Shown in pieces: positions 48,412-64,000 of a stretch of 64,000 bases of DNA. Within the stretch, counting starts at the first letter, position 1. Each line of letters opens with the position of its first letter. The notes beneath the pieces are model-generated. The model was not told the DNA's origin and did not search any database. It saw only the letters and a program-made list of their open reading frames with translations. Made by a program: the position numbers and the translations under genes. The stretch lies in contig CBDDPY010000002.1 in assembly GCA_965232515.1 (NCBI GenBank), positions 320,001 to 384,000 of the forward strand. The letters run 5' to 3'. Source of the stretch: Alphaproteobacteria bacterium (GTDB taxonomy: Bacteria > Pseudomonadota > Alphaproteobacteria > GCA-2731375).

Positions 48412-51400
48412 GTGCCGGATTCCGATGTGGTGGTCGCCGCTGACAGTGACGAACAGCTAAGCATCAAAGAGCTTCCTCTTGCTGACCTACCGCACCTTGC
48501 GGAGCATCACTGGTCTCAAGCCGAAGAAGCGACGGCCCGCGATCAGTTCAATGCTGCGGCAGGCTCTCTGCCATATGGACAGCTTTCCGACACCGGCTTC
48601 GAGCGCCTCTGTTTTCACCTCCTCCTTGCAGAGGGCCACGCACCGCGGTTCTGGGGACGGCGCGGAGACGCTCAGCAAGGTATCGACCTGATCATCTCAA
48701 ATGGAAGCGCTGCCACCGTTTACCAATGCAAGAACCACGCAAGCTTTGACGTGCCGAAGTTACAAAAGGCCCTCAACAAGTTCCGAACCGATTGGCTAGA
48801 GGCAAGGCCGGAACTCGGGCGGCCAGAGAACTTCGTCCTTTGTACCTCGGCGGAGCTCAAGGAAACGGCCAAGTGGGAGGAGTGCAAACGCGCATTCAGA
48901 GCGGAGACCCGTGTGGGCGTCGTGGAATGGCCTCGCGATAGGCTTGACGCCAAGCTTCGAGATCAGCCCGGCATCGTGGCTGATCTGTTCGGCGAACGGG
49001 TCGCGGAGCAGTTCTGCGGGCCAGGGCGAGGCTCGGCCTGGGACCTGGGGTTGTTTCGCCGGCTGGCGCCTGGTTCAGGCGAGAAACGCGTCGACCGCTT
49101 TCTTGAGCTGCGCGACGCCGGCCAGATCGTGCGCCTTGATCGTGAGGCACAGCGATTTGAGGCCATTCTTGGCGGACACCGCCGCATCCTTATCTGTGGC
49201 CTGGCCGGCACCGGCAAGACGATGTCTGCTCTCGAACTTTCCTCGTTTTTTGATGGTGGTTCTTGGCGTGTGTTTTACCTGTGCCCAGACGATACGCACA
49301 ACATCGATCATCTGGTCGAGGGCATCCGGAGCCGAGCGTTTCGCAAGGGCGTCTTTGTGCTGGACGATTGTCATCTGGACTTTGGTAGGGTCGAGCGGCT
49401 TGCCGGACGGATCGCTGCTATCGACAACCCGAATATAAAGCTCGTCCTGACCGCCCGGACACCGCCCAAAGGCCTGGATTTCCTCGACCCTGAAGCAGGT
49501 CACTTCGTGCACGAGCTGCGCGAAGCCGAACAAGCTGTCGAGGTCGCGGCTGATGTCGAGCGTTATCGTGCGATCATGAACCTTCGTCGTCCTAATTGGC
49601 GCGACCCGCCGATCGACCGCTTGATGGCGTGGACGGGCCACGACTTGGCAATACTCGATTTGATCCTCGACGTCACCGAGCAGGACGACATCCGTGAGGT
49701 CGAAAAGATCGACGATCTCTTCGATCAGATCTTGCGCGAAATCTTCAAGGCTCACTCGGCGCAGGCATTCAACCTAAAGCGGCTCGCGGCCGTCGCGCAG
49801 TTCGACCTTGACTTGCCGAGAAACATCTTTCCCGAGCCGTTCGAGCCGAAACCCAATGAAAACGGAGCGGCACAGCGGTTCGTTGTCGTCGGCGGCCGCC
49901 CGCCCGCCGCAAAATTCGGTCATGCCTCGGCGGCAGAGCTGATCTATCGGTTACTGGCATGGGCGCATGGCGAAGAGGATATGCATTTCGCTGCTGCCCG
50001 CGATTGCGCCGACGTCCTCGAATTGTGTCAGCCGGAGCATGCCCTGGGCGAGCTCCTGCCACGCCTGCTTCGCGCCCGCCTGAAGCTCGCCGACGATGGG
50101 GCTATCAAGCGAGAGCTCCTGACTGAGGGACGCGTTTTAGCTCTCCTAGGCGCTGAGCCCGAGTGGGTTCCGACCGCGGTCCTATTCATCTCTGCATTAC
50201 TCTGCCGCAGCCTGCCGACACCGCCTCCTTTCGCGATATGGCTCGCAGAGCGCTTGGAAAGCTGGGCGGAGAACCCTGAGACCGCGGACGATTTTTCGGT
50301 CATCGGCGGTTGCCTCAGAGCGCTCGCCCTGGCCAACGCCTCCGCGCAGCGCGATGTCGAGCTTCGGATCGGCCCGGACCGCTTCGCGGAACTCATCGCC
50401 GCCCGCGGCACGCTTGTCGAGCTGCTGAACGTTTTGCAGCACAGCACGTCGGGATTCGCCGCCGAGCTGTCGCGTGGGTTCAACCGGGAAGGGGTGGCGG
50501 AGCTGCTCGAGCGAACGATCCGCGAAGAGAGGTCGATCGGCACGCTCCACTTCGCGCTGCGAGGCCTCGGCAAACGTCCCTTGCCGGGCGAAGCGGGCCG
50601 CACGCAGCTCCATCTCTTCGAGGAAACGCTCGGTGGGACAGCGATGGCGCGGCTCATCGTCGCCCGCGGCACGCTTGTCGAGCTGCTGAAAGTTTTGGAG
50701 CACAGCACGTCGGGATTCGCCGCCGAGCTGTCGCGTGGGTTCAACCGGGAAGGGGTGGCGGAGCTGCTCGAGCGAACGATCCGCGAAGAGAGGTCGATCG
50801 GCACGCTCCACTTCGCGCTGCGAGGCCTCGGCAAACGTCCCTTGCCGGGCGAAGCGGGCCGCACGCAGCTCCATCTCTTCGAGGAAACGCTCGGTGGGAC
50901 AGCGATGGCGCGGCTCATCGTCGCCCGCGGCACGCTTGTCGAGCTGCTGAAAGTTTTGGAGCACAGCACGTCGGGATTCGCCGCCGAGCTGTTGCGTGGG
51001 TTCAACCGGGAAGGGGTGGCGGAGCTGCTCGAGCGAACGATCCGCGAAGAGAGGTCGATCGGCACGCTCAGCTTCGCGCTGCGAGACCTCGGCAAACGTC
51101 CCTTGCCGGGCGAAGCGGACCGCACGCAGCTCCATCTCTTCGAGGAAACGCTCGGTGGGACAGCGATGGCGCGGCTCATCGCCGCCCGCGGCACGCTTGT
51201 CGAGCTGCTGAAAGTTTTGGAGCACAGCACGTCGGGATTCGCCGCCGAGCTGTTGCGTGGGTTCAACCGGGAAGGGGTGGCGGAGCTGCTCGAGCGAACG
51301 ATCCGCGAAGAGAGGTCGATCGGCACGCTCCACTTGGCGCTGCGAGACCTCGGCAAACGTCCCTTGCCGGGCGAAGCGGACCGCACGCAGCTCCATCTCT

Positions 51401-52788
51401 TCGAGGAAACGCTCGGTGGGACAGCGATGGCGCGGCTCATCGCCGCCCGCGGCACCCTTTTCGAGCTGCTGAAGGTCTTGCAGTACAGCACGTCGGATTT
51501 TGCCGCCGAGCTGTTGCGTGCGTTCAACCGGGAAGGGGTGGCGGAGCTGCTCGAGCGAACGATCCGCGAAGAGAGGTCGATCGGCACGCTCGACTTCGCG
51601 CTGCGAGACCTCGGCAAACGTCAGTTGCCTGGCGAAGCGGACCGCACGCAGCTCCAACTCTTCGAGGAAACGCTCGGCGTCGCCGGCTTTTGGCGGCTCG
51701 TCCTCGGCACCGGCAATCTAAATCATCTTGCCTTCATTCTAGACGCGCTCAGCCCCGCCTTCCGGATTCGCTTACTTTCGGCTGAGCATGCGCCTTCGTC
51801 CGACGGTTGGAAGACGCTGGCTAGCGCAGGCAGCATCTACGACCAAGCCCGCTTTGCGCACGATAGCTTGGCTTTGCTGCCCAACGAGACGGCCAGGCGG
51901 TTTCAGAAAGCGATCGAAGCCACCGCGGCAACTATCGCGGAGACGAGCAGCTGGGACGCACTCGGCGCCGGTCTGGCGATGGCGGAGCTGATCTCGGATG
52001 AACGCGTGCGTTCGGTGCTTCTAGACGGGGTCAACCGGCGCATCGATGCCACCCACCTCGCCACGCTCCGACCGGACGACTACGAATCGGCGACGGGGGC
52101 GCTTTCGTTGCTCTGGCGAGAACGCCCGGGTCTGCGCGCTCAGCTTGGCGCGGCGCTTTGGCGGCTGCTGCCGGACCAAGTGCATTGGCCGCGCACACAC
52201 CGTCTGATCGTTAAGGCCCGTTTCGTCCTCACGGTCGCTCGATCCGAACACGTAAACCAAGACGACGCGCTGCGCACGCTTCGGGCATTCGCACCGCTTG
52301 GCCTCGACATCGCCATTGATCCGAAATCCGCACGCTATCATGCGTTGTTCCTTTGGAATCTATATGCGCTGTGGTTCGAGCGCGGCCTCGATTTGTCCGG
52401 AGACTTCCGACGCTTGCAGCATGACAAAACCTGGGTGCGGTTCGTCGACGTGGTGAAGCGGCGGCTGAGCCTCCGCTGGAATAATGACAAGCTGGATACG
52501 CTGCAACTCGCCGGTGCCCTGGTGTTCCTCGTTCCCGAAATGCGGCCGCGACTGGCTGAGTTGATCAAAGGAAATATCAAAGGTATCAAATATCTAGCCG
52601 ACTTTTCTGACAATGAGTTGAAATTCATCCCTGCGTTTCTCGCATTCAAAGGCATGGCGCTGAGCGCGCCGGAGAGCGCGATTTTCTCGCCAGAGCGTGT
52701 GCGCCTTCTGCTCGATAAATCGGCGGCCTACGATGACCGCGGTCCTGCGATCGAGCATGTCTGCGAATGGTTGAAGGAGCGCCTGTAA
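48412..52788 (+). CDS. Restriction-endonuclease-like domain + STAND-like P-loop NTPase + helical tandem repeats (putative NLR-like defence protein)
   Basis: N-terminal FERLC...QQGIDLI...VYQCK (Mrr-like PD-(D/E/Q)xK), Walker A GLAGTGKT, Walker B VFVLDDCH, sensor-1 LVLTAR, five 87-aa repeats. Codon usage is less GC3-biased than the neighbours. Confidence 0.82.
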   Translation: MPDSDVVVAADSDEQLSIKELPLADLPHLAEHHWSQAEEATARDQFNAAAGSLPYGQLSDTGFERLCFHLLLAEGHAPRFWGRRGDAQQGIDLIISNGSAATVYQCKNHASFDVPKLQKALNKFRTDWLEARPELGRPENFVLCTSAELKETAKWEECKRAFRAETRVGVVEWPRDRLDAKLRDQPGIVADLFGERVAEQFCGPGRGSAWDLGLFRRLAPGSGEKRVDRFLELRDAGQIVRLDREAQRFEAILGGHRRILICGLAGTGKTMSALELSSFFDGGSWRVFYLCPDDTHNIDHLVEGIRSRAFRKGVFVLDDCHLDFGRVERLAGRIAAIDNPNIKLVLTARTPPKGLDFLDPEAGHFVHELREAEQAVEVAADVERYRAIMNLRRPNWRDPPIDRLMAWTGHDLAILDLILDVTEQDDIREVEKIDDLFDQILREIFKAHSAQAFNLKRLAAVAQFDLDLPRNIFPEPFEPKPNENGAAQRFVVVGGRPPAAKFGHASAAELIYRLLAWAHGEEDMHFAAARDCADVLELCQPEHALGELLPRLLRARLKLADDGAIKRELLTEGRVLALLGAEPEWVPTAVLFISALLCRSLPTPPPFAIWLAERLESWAENPETADDFSVIGGCLRALALANASAQRDVELRIGPDRFAELIAARGTLVELLNVLQHSTSGFAAELSRGFNREGVAELLERTIREERSIGTLHFALRGLGKRPLPGEAGRTQLHLFEETLGGTAMARLIVARGTLVELLKVLEHSTSGFAAELSRGFNREGVAELLERTIREERSIGTLHFALRGLGKRPLPGEAGRTQLHLFEETLGGTAMARLIVARGTLVELLKVLEHSTSGFAAELLRGFNREGVAELLERTIREERSIGTLSFALRDLGKRPLPGEADRTQLHLFEETLGGTAMARLIAARGTLVELLKVLEHSTSGFAAELLRGFNREGVAELLERTIREERSIGTLHLALRDLGKRPLPGEADRTQLHLFEETLGGTAMARLIAARGTLFELLKVLQYSTSDFAAELLRAFNREGVAELLERTIREERSIGTLDFALRDLGKRQLPGEADRTQLQLFEETLGVAGFWRLVLGTGNLNHLAFILDALSPAFRIRLLSAEHAPSSDGWKTLASAGSIYDQARFAHDSLALLPNETARRFQKAIEATAATIAETSSWDALGAGLAMAELISDERVRSVLLDGVNRRIDATHLATLRPDDYESATGALSLLWRERPGLRAQLGAALWRLLPDQVHWPRTHRLIVKARFVLTVARSEHVNQDDALRTLRAFAPLGLDIAIDPKSARYHALFLWNLYALWFERGLDLSGDFRRLQHDKTWVRFVDVVKRRLSLRWNNDKLDTLQLAGALVFLVPEMRPRLAELIKGNIKGIKYLADFSDNELKFIPAFLAFKGMALSAPESAIFSPERVRLLLDKSAAYDDRGPAIEHVCEWLKERL
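50392..51696 (+). repeat. Intragenic tandem repeat, 5 x 261 bp (87 aa)
   Basis: Units start at 50392, 50653, 50914, 51175 and 51436 (CTCATCG(C/T)CGCCCGCGGCAC...). Near-identical, with unit 5 more diverged. Confidence 0.97.
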
Positions 52789-53023
52789 TGCCGGAAACGA
52801 CGACGGCGAAACTGTCGCACTGTCATCGGCGTTAGCGCCGCTAAGTTGGTCGTCCGGCTCGACTGCGGCGAAGTCGACTTGCGACCGATTCGGGACATAT
52901 TTGGACTGATCGTTGGCGCTGCCGGAAGTCCCGTTATCGTCGGTCAACGGCCGTTGAAGCGTGTCGGTGCCTCGTCAATGAGGCCACGACCCGACACCCA
53001 GGCTCTCGGTTCTGATCCTGTCG

Positions 53024-53779
53024 TCAGTGCTCCAGCATGTGCCAGAGCTTGCGTTTGACCGCCAGCAGGTCTTCGGAGAGGCGCATCTCGCCGGTGCGGG
53101 GGCGGGGCAGGTCGACGTCCTCGACGTGCCGGACCCGGCCGGGGCGGGCGGACAAGACGACGATCCGGTCGGCCAGGAAGATCGCTTCTTCCAGGTCGTG
53201 GGTCACGAAGACCACGGTCTTGTTCGTAACCTGCCAGAGCTCCTGCAGATCGGCCTGCATGCGTTCCTTGGTCTGGGCGTCCAGCGCGCCGAACGGCTCG
53301 TCCATCAGCAGCACCTCGGGATCGTTGGCGTAGACCCGGCCGATATCGACCCGCTTGCGCATGCCGCCCGAGAGCTCGCGCGGCCAGCGGTCCTCGAAGC
53401 CCTTCAAGCCGACAAGCTCGACCCACTTCTTCTCGATCTCGGCGCAGGCCTTGCGGGATGCGCCATGCAGGCGCGGACCGTAGGAGATGTTCTTCGCCAC
53501 CGTCATCCAGGGAAAGACGGCGTCCTGCTGAAAGACCATGCCGCGCTCGCGGCCAGTGCCCTTGATCTCGTTGCCGTCGAGCGTGATCCGACCGTCGCTC
53601 GGGGCGTAGAGGCCCGCCATCATCTTCAAGAGCGTGGACTTGCCGCAGCCGGACGTGCCGACGATCGCGTTGAAGCTGCCGGAGCGAAACGCGAGATTGA
53701 TGTCGTCCAACACCGTGAGCGCGACGGGCGTGCCCTTGCCAAAGGTGTGGCTGAGCTTGTCGACGATGATCTCGGACAT
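53024..53779 (-). CDS. ABC ATPase, NitT/TauT (SsuB/TauB-like) family
   Basis: GTSGCGKST, LSGGMRKR, LLMDEPFGALD, VTHD. Confidence 0.95.
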   Translation of the reverse strand: MSEIIVDKLSHTFGKGTPVALTVLDDINLAFRSGSFNAIVGTSGCGKSTLLKMMAGLYAPSDGRITLDGNEIKGTGRERGMVFQQDAVFPWMTVAKNISYGPRLHGASRKACAEIEKKWVELVGLKGFEDRWPRELSGGMRKRVDIGRVYANDPEVLLMDEPFGALDAQTKERMQADLQELWQVTNKTVVFVTHDLEEAIFLADRIVVLSARPGRVRHVEDVDLPRPRTGEMRLSEDLLAVKRKLWHMLEH

Positions 53780-54555
53780 TATTCGCGGGTCTCCGACCAG
53801 CGGGTCAGGCGGGTCTGTATGGTCCGGAAAATCCGGTCCATCGTAAAGGCGCAGGCGCCGATGATGACGATGATCATCATCACCTGGTCGGTCAGGAAGT
53901 AACGCCGTCCCTCTTGCAGCAGGAAGCCGAGCCCGCTCGGCGCGGCGATCAGTTCGGCCGCGACCAGCGTCGTCCAGGCGGCCGCCAGCGCGATGCGCAG
54001 CCCGGTAAAGATGAATGGCGTGGCCGCGGGAATGGCGACGGTCCGAAAAATCTGAAAGCGCGACGCGCCCATGGTCGACGCGGCGTCCACATAGACCTGC
54101 GGCACGTTCTTCATGCCGGCGATGACGTTGATGATGCAGACCAGGAAACAGGCGATGGTGATCAACAGGACGCGGCTGAACTCCTCGATGCCGAACCAGA
54201 TGATGACGATCGGGATGTAAGCGAGCGGCGGGATCGGGCGGATCGCCTCGATCAGCGGATCGAACAGGTATTCGATCGTCTTGTACCAGCCGATCAGGCA
54301 GCCCAGCACCAGCGCCAGGCTGGTGCCGATCAGGAAGCCCTGCACGATCCGCGACAGGCTGGCGAACAGCGCGTCGAACAGCGTGCCGCTGGTGATGTTG
54401 GTATAGAACGCCGTGCCGATATTGCTGATCGGCGGCAGCAGCGACGGATTGTTGTCCGGCTGGTTCGTCACCAGGACATAGGCGCCGATCACCACGGCAA
54501 TGGAAAGGGCGCCCAGGACCAGGCGCCCTCTCAGTTGCGGACGCAGCCAGCGCAT
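53779..54555 (-). CDS. ABC permease, NitT/TauT (SsuC/TauC-like)
   Basis: RPIPPLAYIP, DAASTMGAS, WTTLVAAELIAA. Confidence 0.93.
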   Translation of the reverse strand: MRWLRPQLRGRLVLGALSIAVVIGAYVLVTNQPDNNPSLLPPISNIGTAFYTNITSGTLFDALFASLSRIVQGFLIGTSLALVLGCLIGWYKTIEYLFDPLIEAIRPIPPLAYIPIVIIWFGIEEFSRVLLITIACFLVCIINVIAGMKNVPQVYVDAASTMGASRFQIFRTVAIPAATPFIFTGLRIALAAAWTTLVAAELIAAPSGLGFLLQEGRRYFLTDQVMMIIVIIGACAFTMDRIFRTIQTRLTRWSETRE

Positions 54556-54560
54556 CGGCG

Positions 54561-55589
54561 TCAGATCTGTTTGACGATCTGATCGCTGACCAGCGCCTCG
54601 ACGTCCGGCATCGAATCCAGCTTGCCTTTCGACACCAGGAACTCGGCCTGCGTCCTGGCGGAGTTCAGCAGCAATCCCTTGGCGAACAGGTCTTTGATCT
54701 CGGCGGTGTCGAGATAGCCCCAGTCATTGAAGATCGCCGCCACATCCTCGCGCGTAACCTTGGCGTTGCCGAGCCCCTGCTGCCAGCGCTGCATGGCGTC
54801 GATCGCCTTGTCGTTTTCGTTGCGCTGGAAGGCGACGGTCGGCCCATGGAATGCCGCGACCAGATCGACCAGCATCGCCTCGTTGGCGTCCATGTATGGC
54901 TGCGTCGTCATGATCACGTCCATGATGCTGGGGAAGTCTGCCGGCAGCTTGCCGCCATCGACGGTCAGAACCGCATCCGGCCGGGCCTGGAAGATCAGCG
55001 CGCGCGACGTTGCCAACGGCACGCAGGCGTCGACCGCGCCGGCGACGAACGCGGACTGGCCCTCGATCGGCTCCATGTTCACGCGCTCGAAGGGCATGTC
55101 GGACAGCCCGGCGGCGGCGAGCGCGGAATCCAGGAAGAAGTCGAAGTTCGATCCGGAGGTCACCGCGACCCGTTTGCCCTCGAGGTGTTCGATGGAGTCC
55201 ATGCCGGGCGCGCCGACGACGACGAACAGCGGCGTCGCATCGCCGCAGACCGAGAACTCGCGAAAGTCGGCGACCTTGCGCGCCATCGCCGCCAGCGGCG
55301 GCACGGACCCCACCGTCAGCACGTCGATGCTGCCGCCGACCATCGCCTCGATGCCGGGCGGGCCCGAGGGAAACACGCGCATATCAAGTTCGATGTCGCG
55401 TTCGGCCAGGAACCCCTGGTCCTGCGCCAGCCAGTACATGCCGAAGGAATAGGCCGGAATGATTCCGAGCTTGATCTTCCGGGTCGCCGCCTTCGCCGGC
55501 CGCATGAAGAAATAGGGCGTCGCCAGGGCAGCGGTGGCGCCGGCGGTTCCCTTCAGGACGGTCCGCCGCGTCAGTGACTTGGACGTCAT
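54561..55589 (-). CDS. ABC substrate-binding protein (SsuA/TauA-like) with Tat signal
   Basis: Twin-arginine LTRRTVLKG, FPSGPPGIEAMVGGSID, LEGKRVA. Confidence 0.88.
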   Translation of the reverse strand: MTSKSLTRRTVLKGTAGATAALATPYFFMRPAKAATRKIKLGIIPAYSFGMYWLAQDQGFLAERDIELDMRVFPSGPPGIEAMVGGSIDVLTVGSVPPLAAMARKVADFREFSVCGDATPLFVVVGAPGMDSIEHLEGKRVAVTSGSNFDFFLDSALAAAGLSDMPFERVNMEPIEGQSAFVAGAVDACVPLATSRALIFQARPDAVLTVDGGKLPADFPSIMDVIMTTQPYMDANEAMLVDLVAAFHGPTVAFQRNENDKAIDAMQRWQQGLGNAKVTREDVAAIFNDWGYLDTAEIKDLFAKGLLLNSARTQAEFLVSKGKLDSMPDVEALVSDQIVKQI

Positions 55590-55672
55590 GTCGAATTCCT
55601 CCCCAATTTTTTTCCGCTCGGAATTGGATTCCGGCTTGTCAGGAAACGGTAGGGCCGTAGCTGATGCTTGTC

Positions 55673-55695
55673 AATCTAGTAGTTACTAGAATATA
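55673..55695. promoter_or_regulatory. Palindromic operator, copy 1 (probably for the GntR/HutC regulator)
   Basis: AATCTAGTAGTTACTAGAATATA in the divergent SBP/sulfatase promoter. Its reverse complement matches 60212-60234 at 20/23 positions. Confidence 0.78.
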
Positions 55696-55748
55696 CCTTT
55701 TAGAACCGACAGCCGCGGACGGCATGTCGGAACGCGAAGGAGGCCGGC

Positions 55749-57248
55749 ATGAACATCATCCTCATCCTCGTCGACAGCCTGAACAAACACCGCCTGGCGG
55801 CCTACAACGCCGACACGCCGTGCAAGACGCCCGTGCTCGACGCCTTCGCCGCGCGCGCGCAGGTCTTCGAGAACCATTATGTCGGCAGCCTGCCCTGCAT
55901 GCCGGCAAGGCGGGAGATCTTCGCCGGGCGCAAGGAGTTCATGTGGCGCCCCTGGGGACCGCTCGAGGTCTTCGATCCGCGCCTGCCCGTAATCGTCCGG
56001 CAGGCGGGCTACAACACCGGGATCGTCACCGACCACTATCACTACTGGGAGGAGATGGCGAACGGCTACATGCAGGGCTTCTCGTCGGCCGAGTTCATCC
56101 GCGGGCACGAGACGGATTACTGGAAGCTGCCCGAGACCGGGCCGGTGCCGCGCTGGGTCGAAAAGGTCGCCGAATTCCGTTCCGCCGTTCACCCGCGCCA
56201 GTACTACGCCAACGTCAAGGACTTCCAGGGCGAGGAAGACTACTTCCCCGCCAAGGTCTTCACAAAGGCCGCCGAATGGCTGGACGAGAACGCGGCCAAG
56301 GGCCCGTTCTTCCTGCATGTCGAGAACTTTGACGTGCATGAGCCCTACGACGTGCCCGCGCCGTACGACAAGATGTACACCGACGGCTCGAAGGACGATT
56401 TCAACATCTGGCCGCCGTACCAGGTCTATGCCGATCTCGACGCCTTCATGGCCCAGGCGACATCGGCCGATCTGGATTTCCTGAAGGCCCAGTACATGGG
56501 CAAGATCAGCATGGTCGACAAATGGCTGGGCGTGTTCTTCGACAAGCTGTCGGCGCTCGATCTCTGGGACGACACGATGGTGATTTTCACCACCGACCAC
56601 GGCCATGATTTCGCCGAGCGCGGCGTCTTCGGCAAGCAGTTCCCGCACTACGACAGCCACGCCAACATCCCGATGATGATCTGGCATCCCGGGCATGCGC
56701 CGGGGCGGGTGGAGGCGCTGACCCAGACCGTCGATATGTTCGCGACGATTATCGAGACCGCCGGCGGTACGGTCCCGGACGAGAACCGGCATTCCCGCGA
56801 CCTGTCGCCGGTGCTGAGCGGCGGCGCCACGCGCGACGCCGTCCTCTACGGCACGTTCGGGCAGGGTGTCTGCCTGTCGGACGGCGACTGGACGCTGTTC
56901 AAGTCGCCGGTTGCGGGCAAGCCGCTGTTTGCGTATTCAACCATGATCAATCGCCCGCTGATCGTCGACAATCCGGTTGACGGCCGCGTCGGCCGGATGC
57001 CCGATCCGCCCGTCGATCAGGGACAATTCGATCCGACGATCCCACTGCCGCTCTGGAAGATGCCCATCAAGATCGATCCCCGAAAAGACGAAGACTTCCT
57101 GTATCACAGGGCGGAAGATCCCGGCCAGATCCGCAATCTGTGGGATGATGCACCGGACCAGCGCGACCGCCTGCTGAACCTGATGCGGGACATGATTGTC
57201 GAGGAGGGCGCGCCGCCGGAACAGTTGGCCCGGCTGGGCCTCGATTAA
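55749..57248 (+). CDS. Sulfatase-family hydrolase (Cys-type, cytoplasmic)
   Basis: IILILVDSL, TPVLD, CMPARR (CxPxR), FDVHEP, FTTDHG. No signal peptide. Confidence 0.9.
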   Translation: MNIILILVDSLNKHRLAAYNADTPCKTPVLDAFAARAQVFENHYVGSLPCMPARREIFAGRKEFMWRPWGPLEVFDPRLPVIVRQAGYNTGIVTDHYHYWEEMANGYMQGFSSAEFIRGHETDYWKLPETGPVPRWVEKVAEFRSAVHPRQYYANVKDFQGEEDYFPAKVFTKAAEWLDENAAKGPFFLHVENFDVHEPYDVPAPYDKMYTDGSKDDFNIWPPYQVYADLDAFMAQATSADLDFLKAQYMGKISMVDKWLGVFFDKLSALDLWDDTMVIFTTDHGHDFAERGVFGKQFPHYDSHANIPMMIWHPGHAPGRVEALTQTVDMFATIIETAGGTVPDENRHSRDLSPVLSGGATRDAVLYGTFGQGVCLSDGDWTLFKSPVAGKPLFAYSTMINRPLIVDNPVDGRVGRMPDPPVDQGQFDPTIPLPLWKMPIKIDPRKDEDFLYHRAEDPGQIRNLWDDAPDQRDRLLNLMRDMIVEEGAPPEQLARLGLD

Positions 57249-57265
57249 CAGTAGAGAAGGCGCAC

Positions 57266-57916
57266 GTGGCCGAAACCGAACTTTCGAAACGCAAGTCGAT
57301 CATCGCGCATTGTCTCGAGATGAATGCGTCGGGGCTCAATCAGGGCACCTCGGGCAATATCAGCATCCGCCACAAGGACGGCCTGCTGATCACGCCGACC
57401 TCGATGCCCTACGACCAGATGAAGCCCAAGGACATCGTCTATCTCGACGCCTCGGGCAAGCCGCAGGGCGAGGGCAGGCCGTCCAGCGAATGGCGCTTTC
57501 ACCACGACATCCTGGCTGCCCGCCCTGAGGTCAACGCCGTCGTTCACACGCACGCCACCTACTGCACGACGCTGTCGATCATGGGGCTGAAGATCCCGCC
57601 GCTGCACTACATGATCGCCGTCGCCGGCGGTCACGACATCCGCCTCGCGCCCTATGCCATCTATGGCTCGCAGGAACTTTCCGACCATGTCGTCAAGGCG
57701 CTGAAGGACCGCAAGGCCTGCCTGATGGACCATCACGGCATGATCGCGGTTGGATCGTCTTTGCCGCAGGCCATGTGGCTCGCCGTCGAGGTCGAGACGC
57801 TGGCGCGCCAGTACCACGGCTGTCTGGCGCTCGGCAGGAAGCCGCCGCTGTTGACGAAGAAGCAGGTTCAGGCCGTGATCGACAAGATCGGCGGCTACGG
57901 CCGGACGGACGATTGA
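57266..57916 (+). CDS. Class II aldolase, L-fuculose-phosphate aldolase-like
   Basis: GTSGNIS, LITPT, PSSEWRFH, VVHTH, DHHG. GTG start. Confidence 0.9.
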   Translation: MAETELSKRKSIIAHCLEMNASGLNQGTSGNISIRHKDGLLITPTSMPYDQMKPKDIVYLDASGKPQGEGRPSSEWRFHHDILAARPEVNAVVHTHATYCTTLSIMGLKIPPLHYMIAVAGGHDIRLAPYAIYGSQELSDHVVKALKDRKACLMDHHGMIAVGSSLPQAMWLAVEVETLARQYHGCLALGRKPPLLTKKQVQAVIDKIGGYGRTDD

Positions 57917-58767
57917 TGTCTGAGGCAGTGGGTAATGGCGTGACGAACACCGTCAAGGCGCGCCGGCCGGGCCGGCCGACATACGATCTCGCCGACCGCT
58001 CGGCGGCCGCCCAGTTCGAGGCCATTCGTCGCGACATCCGTCTCGACAAGGCATCGAAGCGTCCGCTCTGGCGGCAGATTTCCGAAGCGCTGGAAGCCGC
58101 CGTGCGCGGCGGCGGCCTGGCGCCGCGCTCGCGCCTGCCGTCGGAGGAGGCGCTGGCCGCGATGTTCGGCGTCTCCCGGCCCGTCGTGCGCAACGCGCTG
58201 CAGGCGCTGGCCGGCCGCGGCCTCGTCGTCAAGTTGCACCGCAAGGGCATCTTTGTGGGCGACCCGCCGCCCGAGACCGGGTTCATCACCACCAACCTCG
58301 CCGCCTATGACGACCTCGTCGCCCGCGGCCACAAGGTCACCACCCAAACGTTCGAGCTGTACAGAAGCGCGCCGGACCCTGACGAGCGCGCCGCGCTGCA
58401 GCTCGACGACGCCGATACCGTGGTCCGCATCGGCCGGGTCTTCTTCATGGACGGCAAGCCGATCACCCATGCCCGCATCTCCTTCCACGGCGCCAAGGTG
58501 CCGGGGTTCGAGCATGAAGACATGGAAGGCCGCCCGATCCTGCGTCATATCCAGGACCGCTACGGCCGCTCGCTGTCGCGCGCCGAGCGCTGGTTCAAGG
58601 CCGTGATGCCGCCCGCGGATGTCGCCGACGCCATGGACCTCGGCCCCGACACGCCGGTGATCTGGATCGAGTCGATCGCCTACGAGGCCGACAACACGCC
58701 GCTCGAATACTACCGAGCGCACTACAATTCCGAGACCGCCCTGGTCCACCTCTCGGTCATCGGCTAG
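57916..58767 (+). CDS. GntR family regulator (HutC/UTRA subfamily)
   Basis: PLWRQI, LPSEEALAAMFGVSRPVVRNAL, KGIFV, UTRA-like C-terminus. TGATG coupling to the aldolase gene. Confidence 0.9.
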   Translation: MSEAVGNGVTNTVKARRPGRPTYDLADRSAAAQFEAIRRDIRLDKASKRPLWRQISEALEAAVRGGGLAPRSRLPSEEALAAMFGVSRPVVRNALQALAGRGLVVKLHRKGIFVGDPPPETGFITTNLAAYDDLVARGHKVTTQTFELYRSAPDPDERAALQLDDADTVVRIGRVFFMDGKPITHARISFHGAKVPGFEHEDMEGRPILRHIQDRYGRSLSRAERWFKAVMPPADVADAMDLGPDTPVIWIESIAYEADNTPLEYYRAHYNSETALVHLSVIG

Positions 58768-58850
58768 CCGGCTGGCGAAATAGTTTGATAGCGCGGCTGA
58801 CCATCCCTCGAGACAGCCGCTGACGGGACGTCCTAAGGCTTCCCCATGTC

Positions 58851-58934
58851 GTCATTGCCGGACTTGATCCGGCAATCCAGGCAGCTCTTGTCCCAGGCAC
58901 GGTTCTGGATCACCGGGTCAAGCCCGGTGATGAC
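58851..58934. repeat. Alphaproteobacterial RPE/REP-like palindromic element
   Basis: GTCATTGCCGGACTTGATCCGGCAATCC...GGATCACCGGGTCAAGCCCGGTGATGAC: two hairpins with complementary outer ends, inside further inverted arms spanning about 58764-59054. Confidence 0.8.
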
Positions 58935-59068
58935 AAAGCGGTAGCTAACACATTGAATGCAAGGGATTGATTTCGAGTCAGACTCTGATGAGACGCGAAG
59001 CGTCGTCTCGAAGCATGCTGGTACCGAATTCGCGGTATTTTCAACGGCCTGCTAGCCGGGCTTGAGCG

Positions 59069-60109
59069 TCAGCACGGGTTCAGCGGCGGCTCGCCGGCGA
59101 GATAACGGCGCACGTCCTCGGTCGCCTGTTCTGCGGCGTACGCGACGGTGCGCACCGAAGCGCCGGCGATATGCGGGGTGAGCGTCACGTTGGGCAACTT
59201 GAGCAGCGGCGTGTCAGCCGGGACGGGCTCGGTCGTGAACGTGTCGATCGCGGCGGCGGCGAGAGGGCCTTCGGTCAATGCGCGATACATGGCATCGTCG
59301 TCGCAGAGTGAACCGCGCGTGGTGTTGATCAGCACCGCGCCGTCGCGCATTCGTGCGAACGCCGCCGCGTCCATCATGCCGATCGTCTCTGGCGTCACCT
59401 TGGGGTGCAGCGTGACGACATCCGATTGCGCCAGCAGCGTGTCCATGTCGACGGTGTCGACGCCGGCCGCCATGTCTTCGTCGACAAGTTCGGCATAGGG
59501 GTCGTGGACGACGATGCGGCAGCCGAAGGCGCGCAGCAGCTGGACGACGCGGCGGCCGATGGCGCCATAGCCGACAACGCCCACCGTCATCTCGGACAGC
59601 TCGCGCCCCGTGGTGTCCGCGCGATAGAGGTCGTCGCGCCAGATCCCCTGCCGGAGCGCTTCATGCCCCTCGCGGATCTTCCGCGTCTCCGCCAGGATCG
59701 CGCCGATGGTGAACTCGGCCACGGCTGAGGCGTTTCGCGCCGGCGTGTTCGTCACCAGAATGCTCCGCTCGCGGCAGGCCTCGACGTTGATGTTTACAGG
59801 GCCGCCCCGCGACACCGCGATCATGCGCAAGTGAGGCAGGTCGTCCAGCATCGCTCGCGACACCGGCGCCAGGTGCGTGACCAGGATTTCCGCATCGCCG
59901 ATGATGCCGAGGACCGCGTCTGCGGTGCCGAAATATTCCTTCAGCCCGTCCATGCCCGCCGTCGTGTGGCCGTGCACCAGCGGCTCGCCCGGCCAGTTGT
60001 TCCGGTGCAGCCGAATGTCCAGACCGTCGCCGACCGCCGCGATCAGCCGGTCGCGAAACATCTCCGGCAGCATGAAATTGTCGCCGATGATGATGATCTT
60101 GCGGGACAT
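59069..60109 (-). CDS. D-isomer-specific 2-hydroxyacid dehydrogenase family protein (probable polyol-phosphate dehydrogenase)
   Basis: SRGGPVN, RNASAVAEF, GYGAIG, INTTRG, LTPHIAG. Confidence 0.88.
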   Translation of the reverse strand: MSRKIIIIGDNFMLPEMFRDRLIAAVGDGLDIRLHRNNWPGEPLVHGHTTAGMDGLKEYFGTADAVLGIIGDAEILVTHLAPVSRAMLDDLPHLRMIAVSRGGPVNINVEACRERSILVTNTPARNASAVAEFTIGAILAETRKIREGHEALRQGIWRDDLYRADTTGRELSEMTVGVVGYGAIGRRVVQLLRAFGCRIVVHDPYAELVDEDMAAGVDTVDMDTLLAQSDVVTLHPKVTPETIGMMDAAAFARMRDGAVLINTTRGSLCDDDAMYRALTEGPLAAAAIDTFTTEPVPADTPLLKLPNVTLTPHIAGASVRTVAYAAEQATEDVRRYLAGEPPLNPC

Positions 60110-60211
60110 CTACTGTTCCTTATCCAAGTCAGGCAGCGCATTCTCAATCCCGATGACGGGGTCATGTTGCCTGCTTGCGGCGTCGACCGGTAGTCATTGG
60201 CATTGAATGGA

Positions 60212-60234
60212 TATATTCTAGTAATTACAAGAAT
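60212..60234. promoter_or_regulatory. Palindromic operator, copy 2
   Basis: TATATTCTAGTAATTACAAGAAT in the divergent dehydrogenase/kinase promoter. Confidence 0.78.
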
Positions 60235-60272
60235 TATGCGATCCGCGACAAGAACATTGCGAAGGCCAATCC

Positions 60273-61742
60273 ATGCTGCATCTCGGGATTGACGTCGGCA
60301 CCACCTCGGTCAAGGCCGCCGTCTACGACCGGTCCGGCGAAAAGCACGCCATGGCCAGGGTCGCGGCCGAGACCCTCATGCCGCATCCCGGCTGGTCGGA
60401 ACAGGACATGGCGGCCGCCTGGTCGAATGTCGTCGCCGTCATCCGCGAGATCGCTGGTTCGGTAAACGGCAGCGACATCGCCTCGATCGGCGTGTCGGGG
60501 CAGGGCGATGGCCTCTGGGCGCTCGACGCCGATCGCCGGCCCGTGCGCAACGCCATCCTCTGGAACGATCAGCGGGCAAGCGACATCGTCTCGCGATGGT
60601 CGGACGACGGCGTCGTCGACGCGATCGCAAAATCGTGCCGAACGGCCCTGTGGCCGGGCACCAATGCGGCCATCTATGCCTGGCTCAGGGCGAACGATCC
60701 CGACGCGGCGGGCCGCATCGATGTGATCGTCAATGCGAAGGACTGGATCGGCCATTTGCTGACGGGCGAGCTCGCAACGGACTACGCCGATGCCAGCATC
60801 GCCTTTCTGGATCTGCAATCGAAAACCTATTCGGACAGCGCGTTTGAGCGTTGCGGCGTGTCCGAGCTCGCCGGCAAGCTCCTGCCGCCCCGCCCGTCCG
60901 CCGAGCCCTTGGGCCGGCTCCGGGATGCCGTCGCCGGCGACCTCGGCCTGAAGGCCGGCACGCCCGTCGCGGTCGGCGCCCTCGACATCGCCGCCATGCA
61001 TGTCGGGGCCGGCCTGAACGATGTCGGCGATGCCCTGTTGATTCTGGGCACAACGGCTGTGGTCAGCACGGTGACGTCGCCGTCGCCGCCGCGTGACCGG
61101 ATCGTCGGCGCGACGGTGGTCCACGCCACCGGCGACCGCTGGCTCAACGTCCAGGCGCCGCAATCGGGCACCTCGGCGCTCGACTGGTTCTGCGAACGGT
61201 TCCACGACCTGTTCCCCGGGGGCGCGCCGGATCTCGTCGCGCTGGCCGAGACCGCGCCGCCGGGCGCGAACGGCGTGTTATTCCTGCCCTATCTCACGGG
61301 CGAACGCGCGCCCTTCGTGGCGCCGGACGCCACCGGATCGTTCCTGGGCCTTCGCGCCACCAGCACATCAGCCGACATGGCCCGTGCCGTCCTGGAAGGC
61401 GTCGCCTTCAGCCTGCGCCATTGCCTGGACGAAACCGGCATCGCCGAAAGGGCCGGCTTCGTCGTCACCGGCGGCGGCGCCCGCAGCGACCTCTGGCGCC
61501 AGATCCTCGCCGATGTGATGGGCGTGACGATCCGCAGTCCCGCCGAAGATGAACTCGGCCTCCTCGGCGCCGCCCGCCTCGGCGCCCACGCCGCCGGCGT
61601 GCTGGACGCCTTCACCGCCCATGCGCCAACGAACACGGCAGTCGCCGCGCGCGAACCGGACCCGGATGCGGTCACCTGCATGGAGTCGCACTACGCCGGA
61701 TACCGCGCCGCCATCGACGCGCTGGCGCCAGGCTGGTCATGA
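60273..61742 (+). CDS. FGGY family carbohydrate/polyol kinase
   Basis: LGIDVGTTSVK, SGQGDG, AILWNDQR, FLPYLTGERAP, RAVLEGVA, GGGARS. Confidence 0.93.
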   Translation: MLHLGIDVGTTSVKAAVYDRSGEKHAMARVAAETLMPHPGWSEQDMAAAWSNVVAVIREIAGSVNGSDIASIGVSGQGDGLWALDADRRPVRNAILWNDQRASDIVSRWSDDGVVDAIAKSCRTALWPGTNAAIYAWLRANDPDAAGRIDVIVNAKDWIGHLLTGELATDYADASIAFLDLQSKTYSDSAFERCGVSELAGKLLPPRPSAEPLGRLRDAVAGDLGLKAGTPVAVGALDIAAMHVGAGLNDVGDALLILGTTAVVSTVTSPSPPRDRIVGATVVHATGDRWLNVQAPQSGTSALDWFCERFHDLFPGGAPDLVALAETAPPGANGVLFLPYLTGERAPFVAPDATGSFLGLRATSTSADMARAVLEGVAFSLRHCLDETGIAERAGFVVTGGGARSDLWRQILADVMGVTIRSPAEDELGLLGAARLGAHAAGVLDAFTAHAPTNTAVAAREPDPDAVTCMESHYAGYRAAIDALAPGWS

Positions 61743-61914
61743 TCGACACGCGGGACCAGGGATCGGTGTCCTAAATCACCTCACGCCTCGCGACAGCCGT
61801 CACGTCACTGCCGTGCGTCCGCTGTCGCTTGGTCGGAAATTTGGGCCTGCCGCGTCAGTTCGTGTTTGCCGCGATACGTGGAAGGCGATCGACCATCTGG
61901 CTAAGACGCCGCCG

Positions 61915-62245
61915 GCTTCGATGTGCCGGCAAAATTGCGCCGGGCCGGGCCGCCCTACGGCCTTTCGCCGGGCGATCTGATGGCATCGACCATGGTGACA
62001 TCCGGCACCATGACGAACCGCATCGACCAGCTCGAGAAGGCGGGCCTGGCGGCCCGGCAGCCAAGCCCCGACGACCGCCGCAGCTTCCGCATCTCGCTCA
62101 CCAAAAAAGGCTTCCGCGTCATCGACGCCGCCGTCACCGCCCACATCCAGGCCCAACAAAACTGGTATCGGGCCTGTCCAAAGACGAACGCCGCCAACTC
62201 GACGCGCTGCTGAAGAGGTTCTTGGAAGACTTCAAAACCGACTGA
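61915..62245 (+). pseudogene. Truncated, frameshifted MarR-family (PecS-like) regulator
   Basis: FDV-AKLRRAGPPYGLSPGDL...TSGTMTNRIDQLEKAG...DDRRS..ISLTKKG in one frame, continuing as LVSGLSKDERRQLDALLKRFL in another after about 62155. No recognisable N-terminal helix or start. Confidence 0.75.
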
Positions 62246-62755
62246 GCGCCGAGCCTATCAACCCGTCAACGCGTGCCGCGCGACCACGAAGGTTCACATC
62301 GTGAGCGATGCCAAAGACGTTTCGATCGCGTCGTCTACGAGGCGTAATCCCACTGTTTGCAGGTCCGGCAGTGCAACGCGCATGTGCGAGTGCCGTATCT
62401 CTAGGCATTCGATAGGTTGTCGAGGCCGACGTTCCGCTGCCTTCGCATCTGGGTCCGCAACACAAACAACCCACAATGCCAGTTCCGCATTGTTGTCTGC
62501 TGTCGGCGCACTAGCAGCCGCATTGCGTTGAGAGACTTAACAGCCGAGATTAACAAGGAGCGGTGTAGTATCGATTTTGCCACAACCAGCAACTAGGCGG
62601 ACCAATTCGACTTTCGCAGGGCGGCAGAATTCTGTTGGGGACGTCGGAATCCAATCATTTGTTGCGGAGTGATGGAGTGTTCACTCCAACACATCCAGCA
62701 GCGCTCGGCTACGCCACTAGAAAAACTTTTCAGCCTGATCCGGGTGGTATTCGCT

Positions 62756-64000
62756 CTAGCCAAGCATCTCGTTGTAGATCTCGAACACCCGCTCGGCGCA
62801 ATCCAGAGTTTCCACAATATCCGCTTCGTCACCTTCCAAGACTTGTGGGTTGCGGATCAACCAATCGGCGGGTCGGTAATGGTTATACTCGGGTATATTA
62901 TTCGGCAAGAGCCGGAAGTATGCTTCTGCTTGTTTAACTTGCCTTGGCGCCCCCTCTGCCTCAACCAACTTGTCTGCCGAGAGGGCGTGTTCTTCCTGGA
63001 GCGAATACGCTCCGTTGATGATCCGACAAAAGAGCTGTGGGTGCATTATGTCCTCAACGTCGGCCTCGTCCTGATTGAGTAGTTCAGCAATGGTGTGCAG
63101 TCTCTCAGCTGCCAAGATCTCGCTCCGGCGGATACGTTCTATCTTGCCCTTATCACCCTGACCTTGATCAGACAGAACAGCCACATTTAAGTGGTTCCCG
63201 TGAAACAACGATACAAACGGGCGAATATTGTCAATGCCCCCGGCGGGGCACATGGTCCACCTCGCGTCTAAGCCCTTCCGCCCCCGACATTCGAGCTCAT
63301 TGGACAGCGCTTGCAAATACAAAATGTCCGAAGGTCCCTCGACAAGAAGGCTGTTTTCGCCAACGAACAATGACTGCGTGACGGAGTAGCCGAGCGCACC
63401 CTGTAGAGGAAAGAGGGTGTCTTTGTCGGTGCTCATCACGTCTTGTGTGATCTTCGTGCCCTCTGACTGTGGACGCGCAGGTTTCTCGTAAGTGATCACG
63501 TCTTCGACCACCCGGCAATCGGCCAGCCGTTTTGGAGGAACCATAAACGGCGAATGAGTTGAGTAGATCACCTGGTGCGACGGCAGCAATTGCTCCTCAA
63601 TGTATCGCAACAGGTCCTCTTGAGCTTTGCCGTGGAGCGTCAGGCCTGGCTCGTCAAGCAAGATAATCACATTGTCCGTTTCGCGTCGCATCATCGCGAA
63701 TTGTACGAGAAACGAAAAGAACCAAACAAAGCCAGCACTTCTCTCGGAGAATGGAACGCTTGCGCGATGGAGCTGATTGTAAACGCGCGCACGTGCGACT
63801 GCGCCCACGTTGAAAGGTGCTGGATCTTCTGATCGTCCTTCGTTCAGTTCCACCTTCACCTCAAGGTGCTTGTTCTGTGACCAATACTCAAAGATTTGAT
63901 CAGTAATGTCCGCAGATGCGGCTTCACACTTCGCATTCAACTCTTCATAGCGCGGCGATCCTTTCAGGTCCTCAAGATCGGTGCCGGAAAGTCGAAGAAA
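62756..64000 (-). CDS. OLD-family ATP-dependent nuclease (ABC ATPase + TOPRIM), 5' end outside window
   Basis: Frame is open to base 64000. RSAGFVWFFSF, ILLDEPGLTLH, YSTHSPFM, TOPRIM LLVEGPSDILY, AGG, DVED. Lower GC than the flanks. Confidence 0.88.
   Translation of the reverse strand, partial: FLRLSGTDLEDLKGSPRYEELNAKCEAASADITDQIFEYWSQNKHLEVKVELNEGRSEDPAPFNVGAVARARVYNQLHRASVPFSERSAGFVWFFSFLVQFAMMRRETDNVIILLDEPGLTLHGKAQEDLLRYIEEQLLPSHQVIYSTHSPFMVPPKRLADCRVVEDVITYEKPARPQSEGTKITQDVMSTDKDTLFPLQGALGYSVTQSLFVGENSLLVEGPSDILYLQALSNELECRGRKGLDARWTMCPAGGIDNIRPFVSLFHGNHLNVAVLSDQGQGDKGKIERIRRSEILAAERLHTIAELLNQDEADVEDIMHPQLFCRIINGAYSLQEEHALSADKLVEAEGAPRQVKQAEAYFRLLPNNIPEYNHYRPADWLIRNPQVLEGDEADIVETLDCAERVFEIYNEMLG

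Follow-up and report, generated by a model that had tools for sequence, protein, structure and literature searches.

Sulfate esters make up a poorly charted share of marine and soil organic sulfur. Import by an ABC transporter followed by hydrolysis by a cytoplasmic sulfatase is known from the use of choline sulfate, which is, to our knowledge, the only small-molecule sulfate ester for which a bacterial carbon pathway is well described. A described polyol system is the erythritol–adonitol locus of Sinorhizobium meliloti, in which, according to the excerpts of PMC3599248, lalA-rbtABC serve the use of adonitol and L-arabitol and eryA also serves these pentitols. The analysis presented here sets these and other systems beside an eight-gene cluster at positions 53024–61742 of a 64,000-nucleotide stretch of alphaproteobacterial DNA (contig CBDDPY010000002.1, positions 320,001 to 384,000 of the forward strand; ‘the window’ is this whole stretch). 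The cluster encodes an ABC importer with its substrate-binding protein (SBP), a formylglycine-type hydrolase of the sulfatase family, a FucA-type aldolase, a GntR/HutC-subfamily regulator, a dehydrogenase and an FGGY-family kinase. We propose that the eight genes form one HutC regulon, most likely for growth on a small sulfated polyol of the tetritol or pentitol type, a reading to which we give somewhat better than an even chance; judged from sequence comparison, the regulon appears real and the organosulfate pathway credible.

The evidence consists of observations on the regulatory sites, on their uniqueness and conservation, and on gene families, synteny and orthology. In particular, two divergent promoter regions carry closely similar sites, TATATTCTAGTAACTACTAGATT on the minus strand at 55673–55695 (read as the reverse complement) and TATATTCTAGTAATTACAAGAAT on the plus strand at 60212–60234; a recount upholds both the 20/23 identity and the spacing of about 4.5 kb that an earlier note on this DNA had claimed for them. 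Each is an inverted repeat – TCTAGTA-AC-TACTAGA in site 1 (a perfect 7+7 repeat) and TCTAGTA-AT-TACAAGA in site 2 (one mismatch) – with TCTAGTA-N2-TACTAGA as the common palindrome core and GTAACTAC and GTAATTAC as the respective GT...AC-core stretches. Site 1 lies between the start of the SBP gene (55589, minus strand) and that of the sulfatase gene (55749), and site 2 between the starts of the dehydrogenase gene (60109, minus strand) and the kinase gene (60273). The two putative operators and the regulator gene that lies between them are as follows.

55674..55691, no strand assigned, operator 1, TCTAGTA-N2-TACTAGA, in the SBP/sulfatase divergent promoter region
60216..60233, no strand assigned, operator 2, TCTAGTA-N2-TACAAGA, in the dehydrogenase/kinase divergent promoter region
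57916..58767, plus strand, GntR/HutC-subfamily regulator (PF00392, PF07702)

When the window was scanned with a degenerate 18-mer allowing up to three mismatches, these two places alone were returned, against 0.00 expected from 100 dinucleotide shuffles. In the whole genome (7.39 Mb), the two operators are the only matches to TCTAGTANNTACWAGA at zero or one mismatch; four further places match at two mismatches, which is chance level because a reversed-pattern control gave 57 and 54 matches. That the likeness of the two sites is fortuitous or left over from a duplicated promoter, with no regulator in common, is therefore an exceedingly improbable explanation: it can draw on there being two sites only and on the one mismatch in the kinase-side palindrome, but it has to contend with the zero expectation in shuffles, with the uniqueness of the sites in the genome and with the retention of both in a related locus (L016, below) where the spacers are unalignable and the flanking proteins are 57–84% identical. 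A conserved CTTGTCA box stands directly 5′ of operator 1. Reading by eye against an alphaproteobacterial consensus, we take CTTGTC to be a −35-like and GAATAT a −10-like element around operator 1, which would then presumably occupy the spacer and −10 region of the sulfatase promoter. An Rfam scan of 52000–63000 gave no match.

The regulator combines an N-terminal winged-helix GntR domain (PF00392, 62.3 bits against a cut-off of 27) with a C-terminal UTRA domain of chorismate-lyase fold (PF07702, 96.4 bits against 23.8), so the HutC-type GntR gene that had been claimed to lie between the sites is there; its best NCBIfam matches, HutC, PhnR and PhnF, each fall below their equivalog cut-offs. We place its start at the ATG at 57916, a correction of the earlier start. 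This ATG overlaps the stop codon of the aldolase gene, and sulfatase, aldolase and regulator genes would therefore form one autoregulated operon, in which the regulator is predicted to be translationally coupled to the aldolase gene.

Regulator and site could be followed through related loci. Fifty-six loci were retrieved with the window sulfatase protein, mostly from marine Alphaproteobacteria to judge from their record titles, and the 54 with a full sulfatase orthologue were counted (L055 and L061 were dropped). Cultured strains among the carriers are, for example, Phaeobacter sp. J2-8, Roseobacter cerasinus AI77, Halovulum marinum 2CG4, Paracoccus homiensis DSM 17862 and Nitratireductor sp. 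XY-223. Three of them – L016 (a Stappiaceae metagenome-assembled genome, MAG), L017 (Nitratireductor) and L024 (a Rhizobiaceae MAG) – have a regulator sharing 62% identity or more with that of the window. In each, a perfect palindrome stands some 70 bp upstream of the sulfatase gene, and in L016 a second operator copy occupies the dehydrogenase/kinase spacer. The footprint CTTGTCAATCTAGTAATTACTAGAATATA is thus kept in all four SBP/sulfatase spacers (the window, L016, L017 and L024), whose flanks are unalignable. Where the regulator is 44–58% identical and encoded downstream of the importer, the palindrome, read by eye, is a variant resembling TCTGATTATAATCAGA. That regulator and site vary together points to the local regulator as the putative binder. 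The earlier claim of one regulon held together by a shared operator is accordingly well borne out by a phylogenetic footprint in genomes with an orthologous regulator and by both sites in L016.

The TCTGATTATAATCAGA-like palindrome occurs in two copies per SBP/sulfatase spacer in L009, L015, L031, L032, L033 and L035, where the HutC regulator, its gene likewise downstream of the importer, is 46–58% identical. Loci with a SorC regulator have another palindrome, TGTCAT-(A/T-rich)-TGACA followed by CTTGTCAA, about 80 bp upstream of the sulfatase gene (ten loci: L023, L038–L042, L044, L052, L053 and L058), which is a candidate SorC operator for the sulfatase and importer genes; TGTCA-N7-TGACA was found upstream of the sulfatase only and not before the Rhodobacterales catabolic operon, where the DNA 5′ of the BisC gene is mostly uncovered.

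The remaining seven genes of the cluster are listed here with their Pfam evidence. Pfam and NCBIfam together agree with all eight gene calls made before, apart from the regulator start.

53024..53779, minus strand, ABC transporter ATPase, TauB/SsuB-like, last gene of the importer operon (PF00005, 113.8 bits)
53779..54555, minus strand, ABC transporter permease, TauC/SsuC-like (PF00528, 88.5 bits)
54561..55589, minus strand, periplasmic SBP of the SsuA/TauA (NMT1) family with a twin-arginine (TAT) signal (PF09084, PF13379)
55749..57248, plus strand, cytoplasmic formylglycine-type hydrolase, sulfatase family (PF00884, 137.8 bits)
57266..57916, plus strand, FucA-type class II aldolase, dependent on dihydroxyacetone phosphate (DHAP) (PF00596, 187.5 bits)
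59069..60109, minus strand, NAD-dependent dehydrogenase of the D-2-hydroxyacid dehydrogenase family (PF02826, 194.9 bits; PF00389, 64.8 bits)
60273..61742, plus strand, FGGY-family sugar/polyol kinase, XylB-like (PF00370, FGGY_N, 186.4 bits; PF02782, FGGY_C, 113 bits)

Most of these proteins resemble described subfamilies without reaching their cut-offs. The best NCBIfam match of the ATPase is the taurine ABC ATPase (228.6 bits, cut-off 357), and its orthologues, 75–85% identical, adjoin the sulfatase in related loci; the permease scores 188 bits against the TauC model, again below the cut-off. For the SBP the scores are 108 bits against TIGR01728 (SsuA family; cut-off 163.5) and 48.8 bits against the taurine SBP model (cut-off 304), and its nearest solved relatives are sulfonate-, taurine- and nitrate-binding proteins (E 1e-10 to 1e-5). 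The kinase stays below the XylB equivalog cut-off (TIGR01312, 317.6 bits against 380.25). The aldolase passes NF005984 for the FucA subfamily (270.1 bits, cut-off 264) and lies below the FucA equivalog TIGR01086 (253.1 bits, cut-off 400.25); an OtnC-type decarboxylase was considered for this gene and dropped (109.7 bits against a cut-off of 250).

We suggest the following course of events; inferred in it are that the repressor binds, that the ester is a sulfate, in what order kinase and dehydrogenase act and which polyol is used. A repressor dimer would bind one palindromic operator in each divergent promoter region and would keep four transcription units silent as long as no pathway intermediate occupies its UTRA domain. 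The SsuA/TauA-family SBP and its ABC importer would take up an anionic ester, from which the cytoplasmic formylglycine hydrolase would strip the sulfate; FGGY kinase and RbtA-like dehydrogenase would turn the freed polyol into a ketose 1-phosphate, and the FucA-type aldolase would cleave this to DHAP and a short aldehyde. FucA cleaves D-ribulose 1-phosphate to DHAP and glycolaldehyde. A pentitol route via D-ribulose 1-phosphate and a tetritol route via D-erythrulose 1-phosphate would both fit FucA chemistry, and FucA both makes D-erythrulose 1-phosphate from, and cleaves it to, DHAP and formaldehyde, according to the excerpts of PMC10733421.

A signal peptide is missing from the hydrolase, whose formylglycine motif, C50-M-P-A-R54 (CxPxR), is invariant in 20 of 20 family members, as are D9, H197, D283-H284 and K296 in the alignment of the same number (metal-binding Asp/His and a C-terminal Lys). 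The canonical sulfatase motif II, G-Y-x-T-x-x-x-G-K-x-H, is absent, and T94-D-H-Y-H stands in its place: where GYNTGIVTDHYH of the hydrolase is aligned with GYYTALSGKMHF of choline sulfatase, Asp occupies the Lys position and Tyr the His position, the Lys and His of motif II being the residues that contact sulfate in S1 sulfatases. The whole segment T94-D-H-Y-H-Y-W-E-E102 is invariant in the 20 members, and on these alignments TDHYHYWEE appears to mark a distinct, uncharacterised formylglycine hydrolase subfamily. Among 8000 sequence clusters scored, at least 2881 belong to the family at E 1e-60 or better, and the top 120 are without exception 61% or more identical to the hydrolase and bear generic names only; the subfamily occurs widely in genomes of the Roseobacter group, SAR116, Stappiaceae and Geminicoccales. 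Genes with an FGE domain occur in the genome of the window and adjoin the sulfatase in 19 of the 54 related loci.

These features bear on what bond is cleaved. The same regulon might serve a small anionic polyol ester other than a sulfate, the hydrolase being a phosphodiesterase or phosphonate-monoester hydrolase (PMH) whose product feeds the same enzymes. Replacement of the sulfate-binding Lys/His by an invariant stretch whose counterpart in the alignment is GYTDT of PMH 4uph speaks for this, as do the best partial NCBIfam match (PehA, 111 bits) and a top Foldseek match to PMH; the PehA score is, however, far under the cut-off of 900. The hydrolase stands far from all enzymes that have been characterised: in the PDB it matches best PMH 4uph (partially, at 102 bits) and choline sulfatase 6fny (77 bits; E 1e-20 over residues 2–382), and the choline-sulfatase model TIGR03417 gives 108.5 bits against a cut-off of 433.45. 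With the AlphaFold model (pLDDT 76, pTM 0.83), Foldseek places PMH, choline sulfatase and SpAS about equally near (TM about 0.6, probability 1.00), so that the fold search does not separate a sulfatase from a phosphonate-ester hydrolase, and choline sulfatase and the SpAS sulfatases match as well as PMH does. Moreover, the linked importers are all of sulfonate/sulfate-ester types (SsuA/TauA/NMT1, and TTT in SAR116) rather than PhnD or Ugp, no phn or C–P lyase gene was seen in the annotated loci, and dephosphorylation followed by rephosphorylation at the cost of ATP would be wasteful. We hold a non-sulfate ester to be distinctly unlikely. Given importers of the sulfonate/sulfate-ester type and a kinase as the following enzyme, hydrolysis of a sulfate ester explains the cluster most economically and is the likely activity of the hydrolase.

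That the ester is one of a polyol is suggested by kinship of the downstream enzymes with the S. meliloti locus. The window dehydrogenase is 64.5% identical to the 2-hydroxyacid dehydrogenase of that locus and is its reciprocal best match (in the genome of the window the S. meliloti protein scores 491.8 bits with the window gene and 156.2 bits with the next match); by gene order, set against the order of names in PMC3599248, this orthologue is presumably rbtA. Likewise, the window aldolase is 53–54% identical to the aldolase at the fucA1 position, again as a reciprocal best match (233 bits, next match 63 bits). The S. meliloti pair is adjacent, between the FGGY kinase of the locus and an EryB-like dehydrogenase. 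Between the window kinase and the one at the eryA position, identity is 29.9% (441 residues), and the former does not qualify as an EryA-type orthologue. The likeness to the rhizobial erythritol–adonitol locus that the earlier note had pointed to thus holds for dehydrogenase and aldolase and fails for the kinase. A dehydrogenase orthologue (57–69% identity) was found in 7 of 400 other genomes of the class that were sampled; an FGGY kinase is in the locus in all seven, adjacent in six, a FucA-type aldolase follows in three, and nearby lie a SorC regulator and an ABC importer of sugar type that has two ATPases. No sulfatase was found in any of these seven loci. Since dehydrogenase–kinase–aldolase loci without sulfatase exist in the class, the window appears to combine a module for neutral polyols with importer and hydrolase for an ester.

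The same joining recurs among the 54 sulfatase loci. An NMT1-type SBP is present in 31 of them, a dehydrogenase in 39, a sugar kinase in 27, a class II aldolase-family protein in 26, and kinase together with aldolase in 25; restricted to the 39 loci that extend at least 5 kb to either side, the counts become 25, 31, 23, 22 and 21. The dehydrogenases of these loci come from three families and the kinases from two, and there are five layouts.

Layout A, the window and L016, partly L017 and L024: FucA-type aldolase, 2-hydroxyacid-family dehydrogenase, FGGY kinase
Layout B, 7 loci: aldolase as in A, PfkB kinase, short-chain dehydrogenase/reductase (SDR)
Layout C, 18 Rhodobacterales loci: FGE, SorC regulator, AraD-like class II aldolase-family protein, Zn-dependent alcohol dehydrogenase, FGGY kinase, BisC-family molybdoenzyme
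Layout D, Geminicoccales and others: importer and SDR only
Layout E, SAR116: sulfatase then SDR (of the same orthogroup as in B), TTT transporter, acyl-CoA genes

The FGGY kinases of layout C are 43–48% identical to that of the window. The non-orthologous parts in kinase- and aldolase-linked loci argue that linkage to the hydrolase and importer was assembled repeatedly, and the linkage of the two modules thus recurs outside the window, so that the refuting case of modules unlinked elsewhere, named in the earlier note, does not apply. The conservation of the eight-gene cluster as a whole, which had also been put up for checking, is narrower: L016 holds all eight genes in the order of the window together with both operators, and it is alone among the 54 loci in doing so. 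No aldose–ketose isomerase turned up in the annotated locus architectures, which fits a polyol entering by oxidation. A rhamnose or fucose sulfate as substrate was considered and dropped: there is no isomerase, and the Rhodobacterales ‘aldolase’, of 222–230 aa, is not a fused RhaD. Clades of the sulfatase may have related but different substrates, to judge from the sulfatase tree.

This recurrence also bears on sulfur scavenging of the Ats type by importer and sulfatase, with kinase, dehydrogenase and aldolase as an unrelated neighbour operon that shares the regulator. The SBP-and-sulfatase layout does resemble that of Pseudomonas atsRBC/atsA, where an SsuA-family binding protein reportedly occurs with a sulfatase. 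The regulator, however, is a substrate-type HutC repressor and not of the CysB, Cbl or SsuR type; the same operator stands at the carbon genes in the window and L016; in 25 of 54 loci sulfatase is again linked to kinase and aldolase, with parts that are not orthologous; and most carriers are marine by record title, sulfate not being limiting in the sea. We therefore regard scavenging as highly unlikely.

Related loci carry further genes, of two kinds. A BisC-family molybdopterin S/N-oxide reductase (TIGR00509, 797 bits, below the cut-off of 1017) is encoded in 19 of the 54 (L018, L020, L022, L023, L039–L042, L046–L053 and L060, e.g. L048:14696-17146; also L024 and L035:1576-4026). In the Rhodobacterales of layout C it lies in one operon with the kinase, dehydrogenase and aldolase-family genes, and in L024 and L035, which represent two other layouts, it adjoins the importer operon; on the importer strand of L024 the order is importer, BisC, dehydrogenase orthologue, SBP56. 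Genes for SBP56 (methanethiol-oxidase family) were found at L024:~521-1900, L035:208-1563 and L009:~14142, and an FMO-like monooxygenase gene follows the SDR gene at L033:16019-17461 and L009:11874-13289 and also in L031 and L035. The second kind is an acyl-CoA set: acyl-CoA ligase, Ltp2-like thiolase, DUF35 (ChsH2-like) and MaoC hydratase genes between sulfatase and FucA-type aldolase (L033:9511-13521, L015:9566-13555, L041:3-1800). In SAR116 (L014:2860-7927) ligase, thiolase-like, HutC regulator and nucleoside-hydrolase-family genes are divergent from the sulfatase–SDR pair, and some Roseibium and Phaeobacter loci have, as in SAR116, acyl-CoA ligase, thiolase-like and MaoC genes.

The BisC, SBP56 and FMO-like neighbours are hints of a methylated-sulfur part of the substrate in some lineages. 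Accordingly, we weighed the possibility that the regulon serves the sulfate ester of something other than a plain polyol – a ketose, an aldose, a hydroxy acid, or a polyol or riboside bearing a methylthio, methylsulfinyl or comparable group – with the dehydrogenase acting on a free alcohol or 2-hydroxy acid. Members of its family normally act on 2-hydroxy acids, and both sets of extra genes (acyl-CoA/Ltp2-like/DUF35/MaoC on the one side, FMO-like, BisC and SBP56 on the other) would find a place. Against this, the extra genes are absent from the window cluster, BisC-like and SBP56 genes being encoded elsewhere in the same genome; the S. meliloti orthologue of the dehydrogenase sits in a polyol locus; and the window cluster contains neither isomerase nor glycosidase. 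Such a substrate seems to us unlikely for the window.

The sulfated-polyol reading has itself to be set against a number of points, which together with the absent motif II, the alignment with PMH and the undecided fold search all weigh against it. L017 and L024 retain one operator only, on the sulfatase side, and the complete eight-gene layout is found in 1 of 54 loci. The branching of the sulfatase tree reflects architecture as well as taxonomy. A sigma-70 promoter scan of 52700–62400 returned no site at its simple thresholds. Neither the acyl-CoA set nor the BisC/FMO-like/SBP56 set of the related loci is explained by a plain polyol. A full-text literature search found no record of bacteria using a natural sulfated tetritol or pentitol, nor of their using the methyltetrol sulfates that the earlier note had named. 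Finally, fucA1 is dispensable for S. meliloti to use erythritol, adonitol and L-arabitol, as stated in the excerpts of PMC3599248.

As to expression, contigs from a relative 90–99% identical were found at low depth in three RNA-seq libraries labelled as from another organism (X4, X11 and X12), where they cover 30, 28 and 26 of 30 bins of 53024–61742, and one RNA-seq contig of 1683 nt spans 56344–58026, that is, sulfatase, aldolase and the start of the regulator gene. These contigs are compatible with expression; DNA carry-over is possible, and contigs do not show single transcripts. A poly-A raw-read run (X21) had no reads on the cluster, which is no test of expression. Small word shares with coral and marine metagenome runs were seen and are no basis for a habitat claim.

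The surroundings of the cluster suggest how it came to its present place. It is flanked by an open reading frame of 1458 aa with a weak STAND-NTPase match (48412–52788, plus strand) and by an OLD-family (AAA_15 + TOPRIM) nuclease-like gene (62756–64000, minus strand). No orthologues of sulfatase and dehydrogenase were found in 32 other genomes of the same order, and these absences together with the defence-like flanks make the cluster look acquired; it is probably an acquired island. The G+C content (0.59–0.67) is not deviant. The convergent gap of 300 bp between regulator and dehydrogenase genes contains a 30-nt inverted repeat (58851–58934; 80% complementary, arms 24 nt apart, each with a small hairpin), which may serve as a bidirectional terminator or represent a REP-like element.

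Substrate-responsive repressors of the HutC type that act on palindromic operators are in themselves ordinary. What is new is the combination of a distinct hydrolase subfamily with organosulfate-type importers and polyol-locus enzymes. The full-text literature search found no description of such a pathway, and searches by polyol-sulfate names returned papers from atmospheric chemistry and materials science only. More speculatively, and at clearly less than an even chance, the cluster may be the first recognisable genetic signature of the catabolism of natural sulfated polyols by a new hydrolase subfamily (TDHYHYWEE), with substrates that are perhaps methyl-sulfur-bearing in the BisC/FMO-like/SBP56 lineages. 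The hydrolase family is large, occurs, to judge from record titles, mainly in abundant marine Alphaproteobacteria and is consistently paired with anion importers and sugar-alcohol-type enzymes, which argues for an abundant substrate. On the speculative reading, sulfated polyols would be a class of organosulfates not yet mapped in marine dissolved organic matter, and, should methylated-sulfur substrates prove true, the pathway would link organosulfate and methyl-sulfur cycling. The two-operator regulon is also a potential biosensor: either promoter, fused to a reporter and combined with the repressor, could reveal the inducer in exudates of algae or in aerosols. From the enzymes follow a few assays by which a new pathway, and with it a new specificity among sulfatases, would be defined.

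Considering the described systems in turn, the use of choline-O-sulfate in S. meliloti (BetC, an ABC importer and BetA/BetB, the bet genes reportedly being laid out as an operon) shares with our proposal the import of a small sulfate ester, cytoplasmic desulfation of the Cys type and oxidation of the alcohol, and choline sulfatase (6fny) is among the nearest solved relatives of the window hydrolase. It differs in the hydrolase itself (identity about 19–20%, another motif II) and in importer family, regulator and downstream enzymes, which are all unlike those of the window. The PMH/arylsulfatase group (RlPMH 2vqr, 4uph, and SpAS1/2 4upi/4upl), whose members are promiscuous and whose natural substrates are largely unknown, gives the best sequence and fold matches to the hydrolase and has in common with it the formylglycine motif, the metal ligands, the His, the C-terminal Lys and a TD-containing segment in the place of GKxH; identity, however, does not exceed 21%, the TM-score is about 0.6, and TDHYHYWEE is specific to the family of the window hydrolase.

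The regulator resembles the HutC-subfamily repressors (NagR/YvoA, DasR, HutC, TreR, PhnF) in its winged-helix GntR and UTRA domains and in short palindromic operators with a GT...AC core; their effectors are often pathway intermediates, e.g. sugar phosphates, and HutC-type sites such as TGGTCTATACCA are listed with known effectors in the excerpts of PMC2018728. The half-site TCTAGTA of the putative operators and the genes regulated are new in the window. E. coli FucA, which acts on D-ribulose 1-phosphate or L-fuculose 1-phosphate and, as a side activity, on D-erythrulose 1-phosphate, is matched by the window aldolase at the level of the subfamily model NF005984; the latter protein, in contrast, falls under the FucA equivalog cut-off and has no FucI or FucK partners.

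The Rhodobacterales loci have the families of Zn-dependent alcohol dehydrogenase, FGGY kinase and AraD-like protein in common with the EltD/LerK/LerI/DerI pathway of Mycobacterium smegmatis; EltD, LerK and LerI are presumed by us to belong to these three families, and the likeness is one of family. The enzyme roles of EltD, LerK and LerI in the tetritol pathway are described in the excerpts of PMC10733421. No DerI/RpiB gene was seen in the Rhodobacterales loci, and the window itself differs in using a FucA-type aldolase and a 2-hydroxyacid-family dehydrogenase.

Finally, with the S. meliloti locus (eryD, mptABCDE, eryA, rbtA, fucA1, eryB, lalA, rbtBC, eryC, eryR-tpiB-rpiB) the window shares an orthologous dehydrogenase and aldolase with an FGGY kinase adjoining. 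The two differ in that the window lacks EryB, EryC, TpiB, RpiB, LalA, RbtBC and the Mpt sugar-type importer, in that its regulator is of the HutC type rather than SorC or DeoR, and in that the window adds to the shared enzymes an anion importer and a hydrolase of the sulfatase family.

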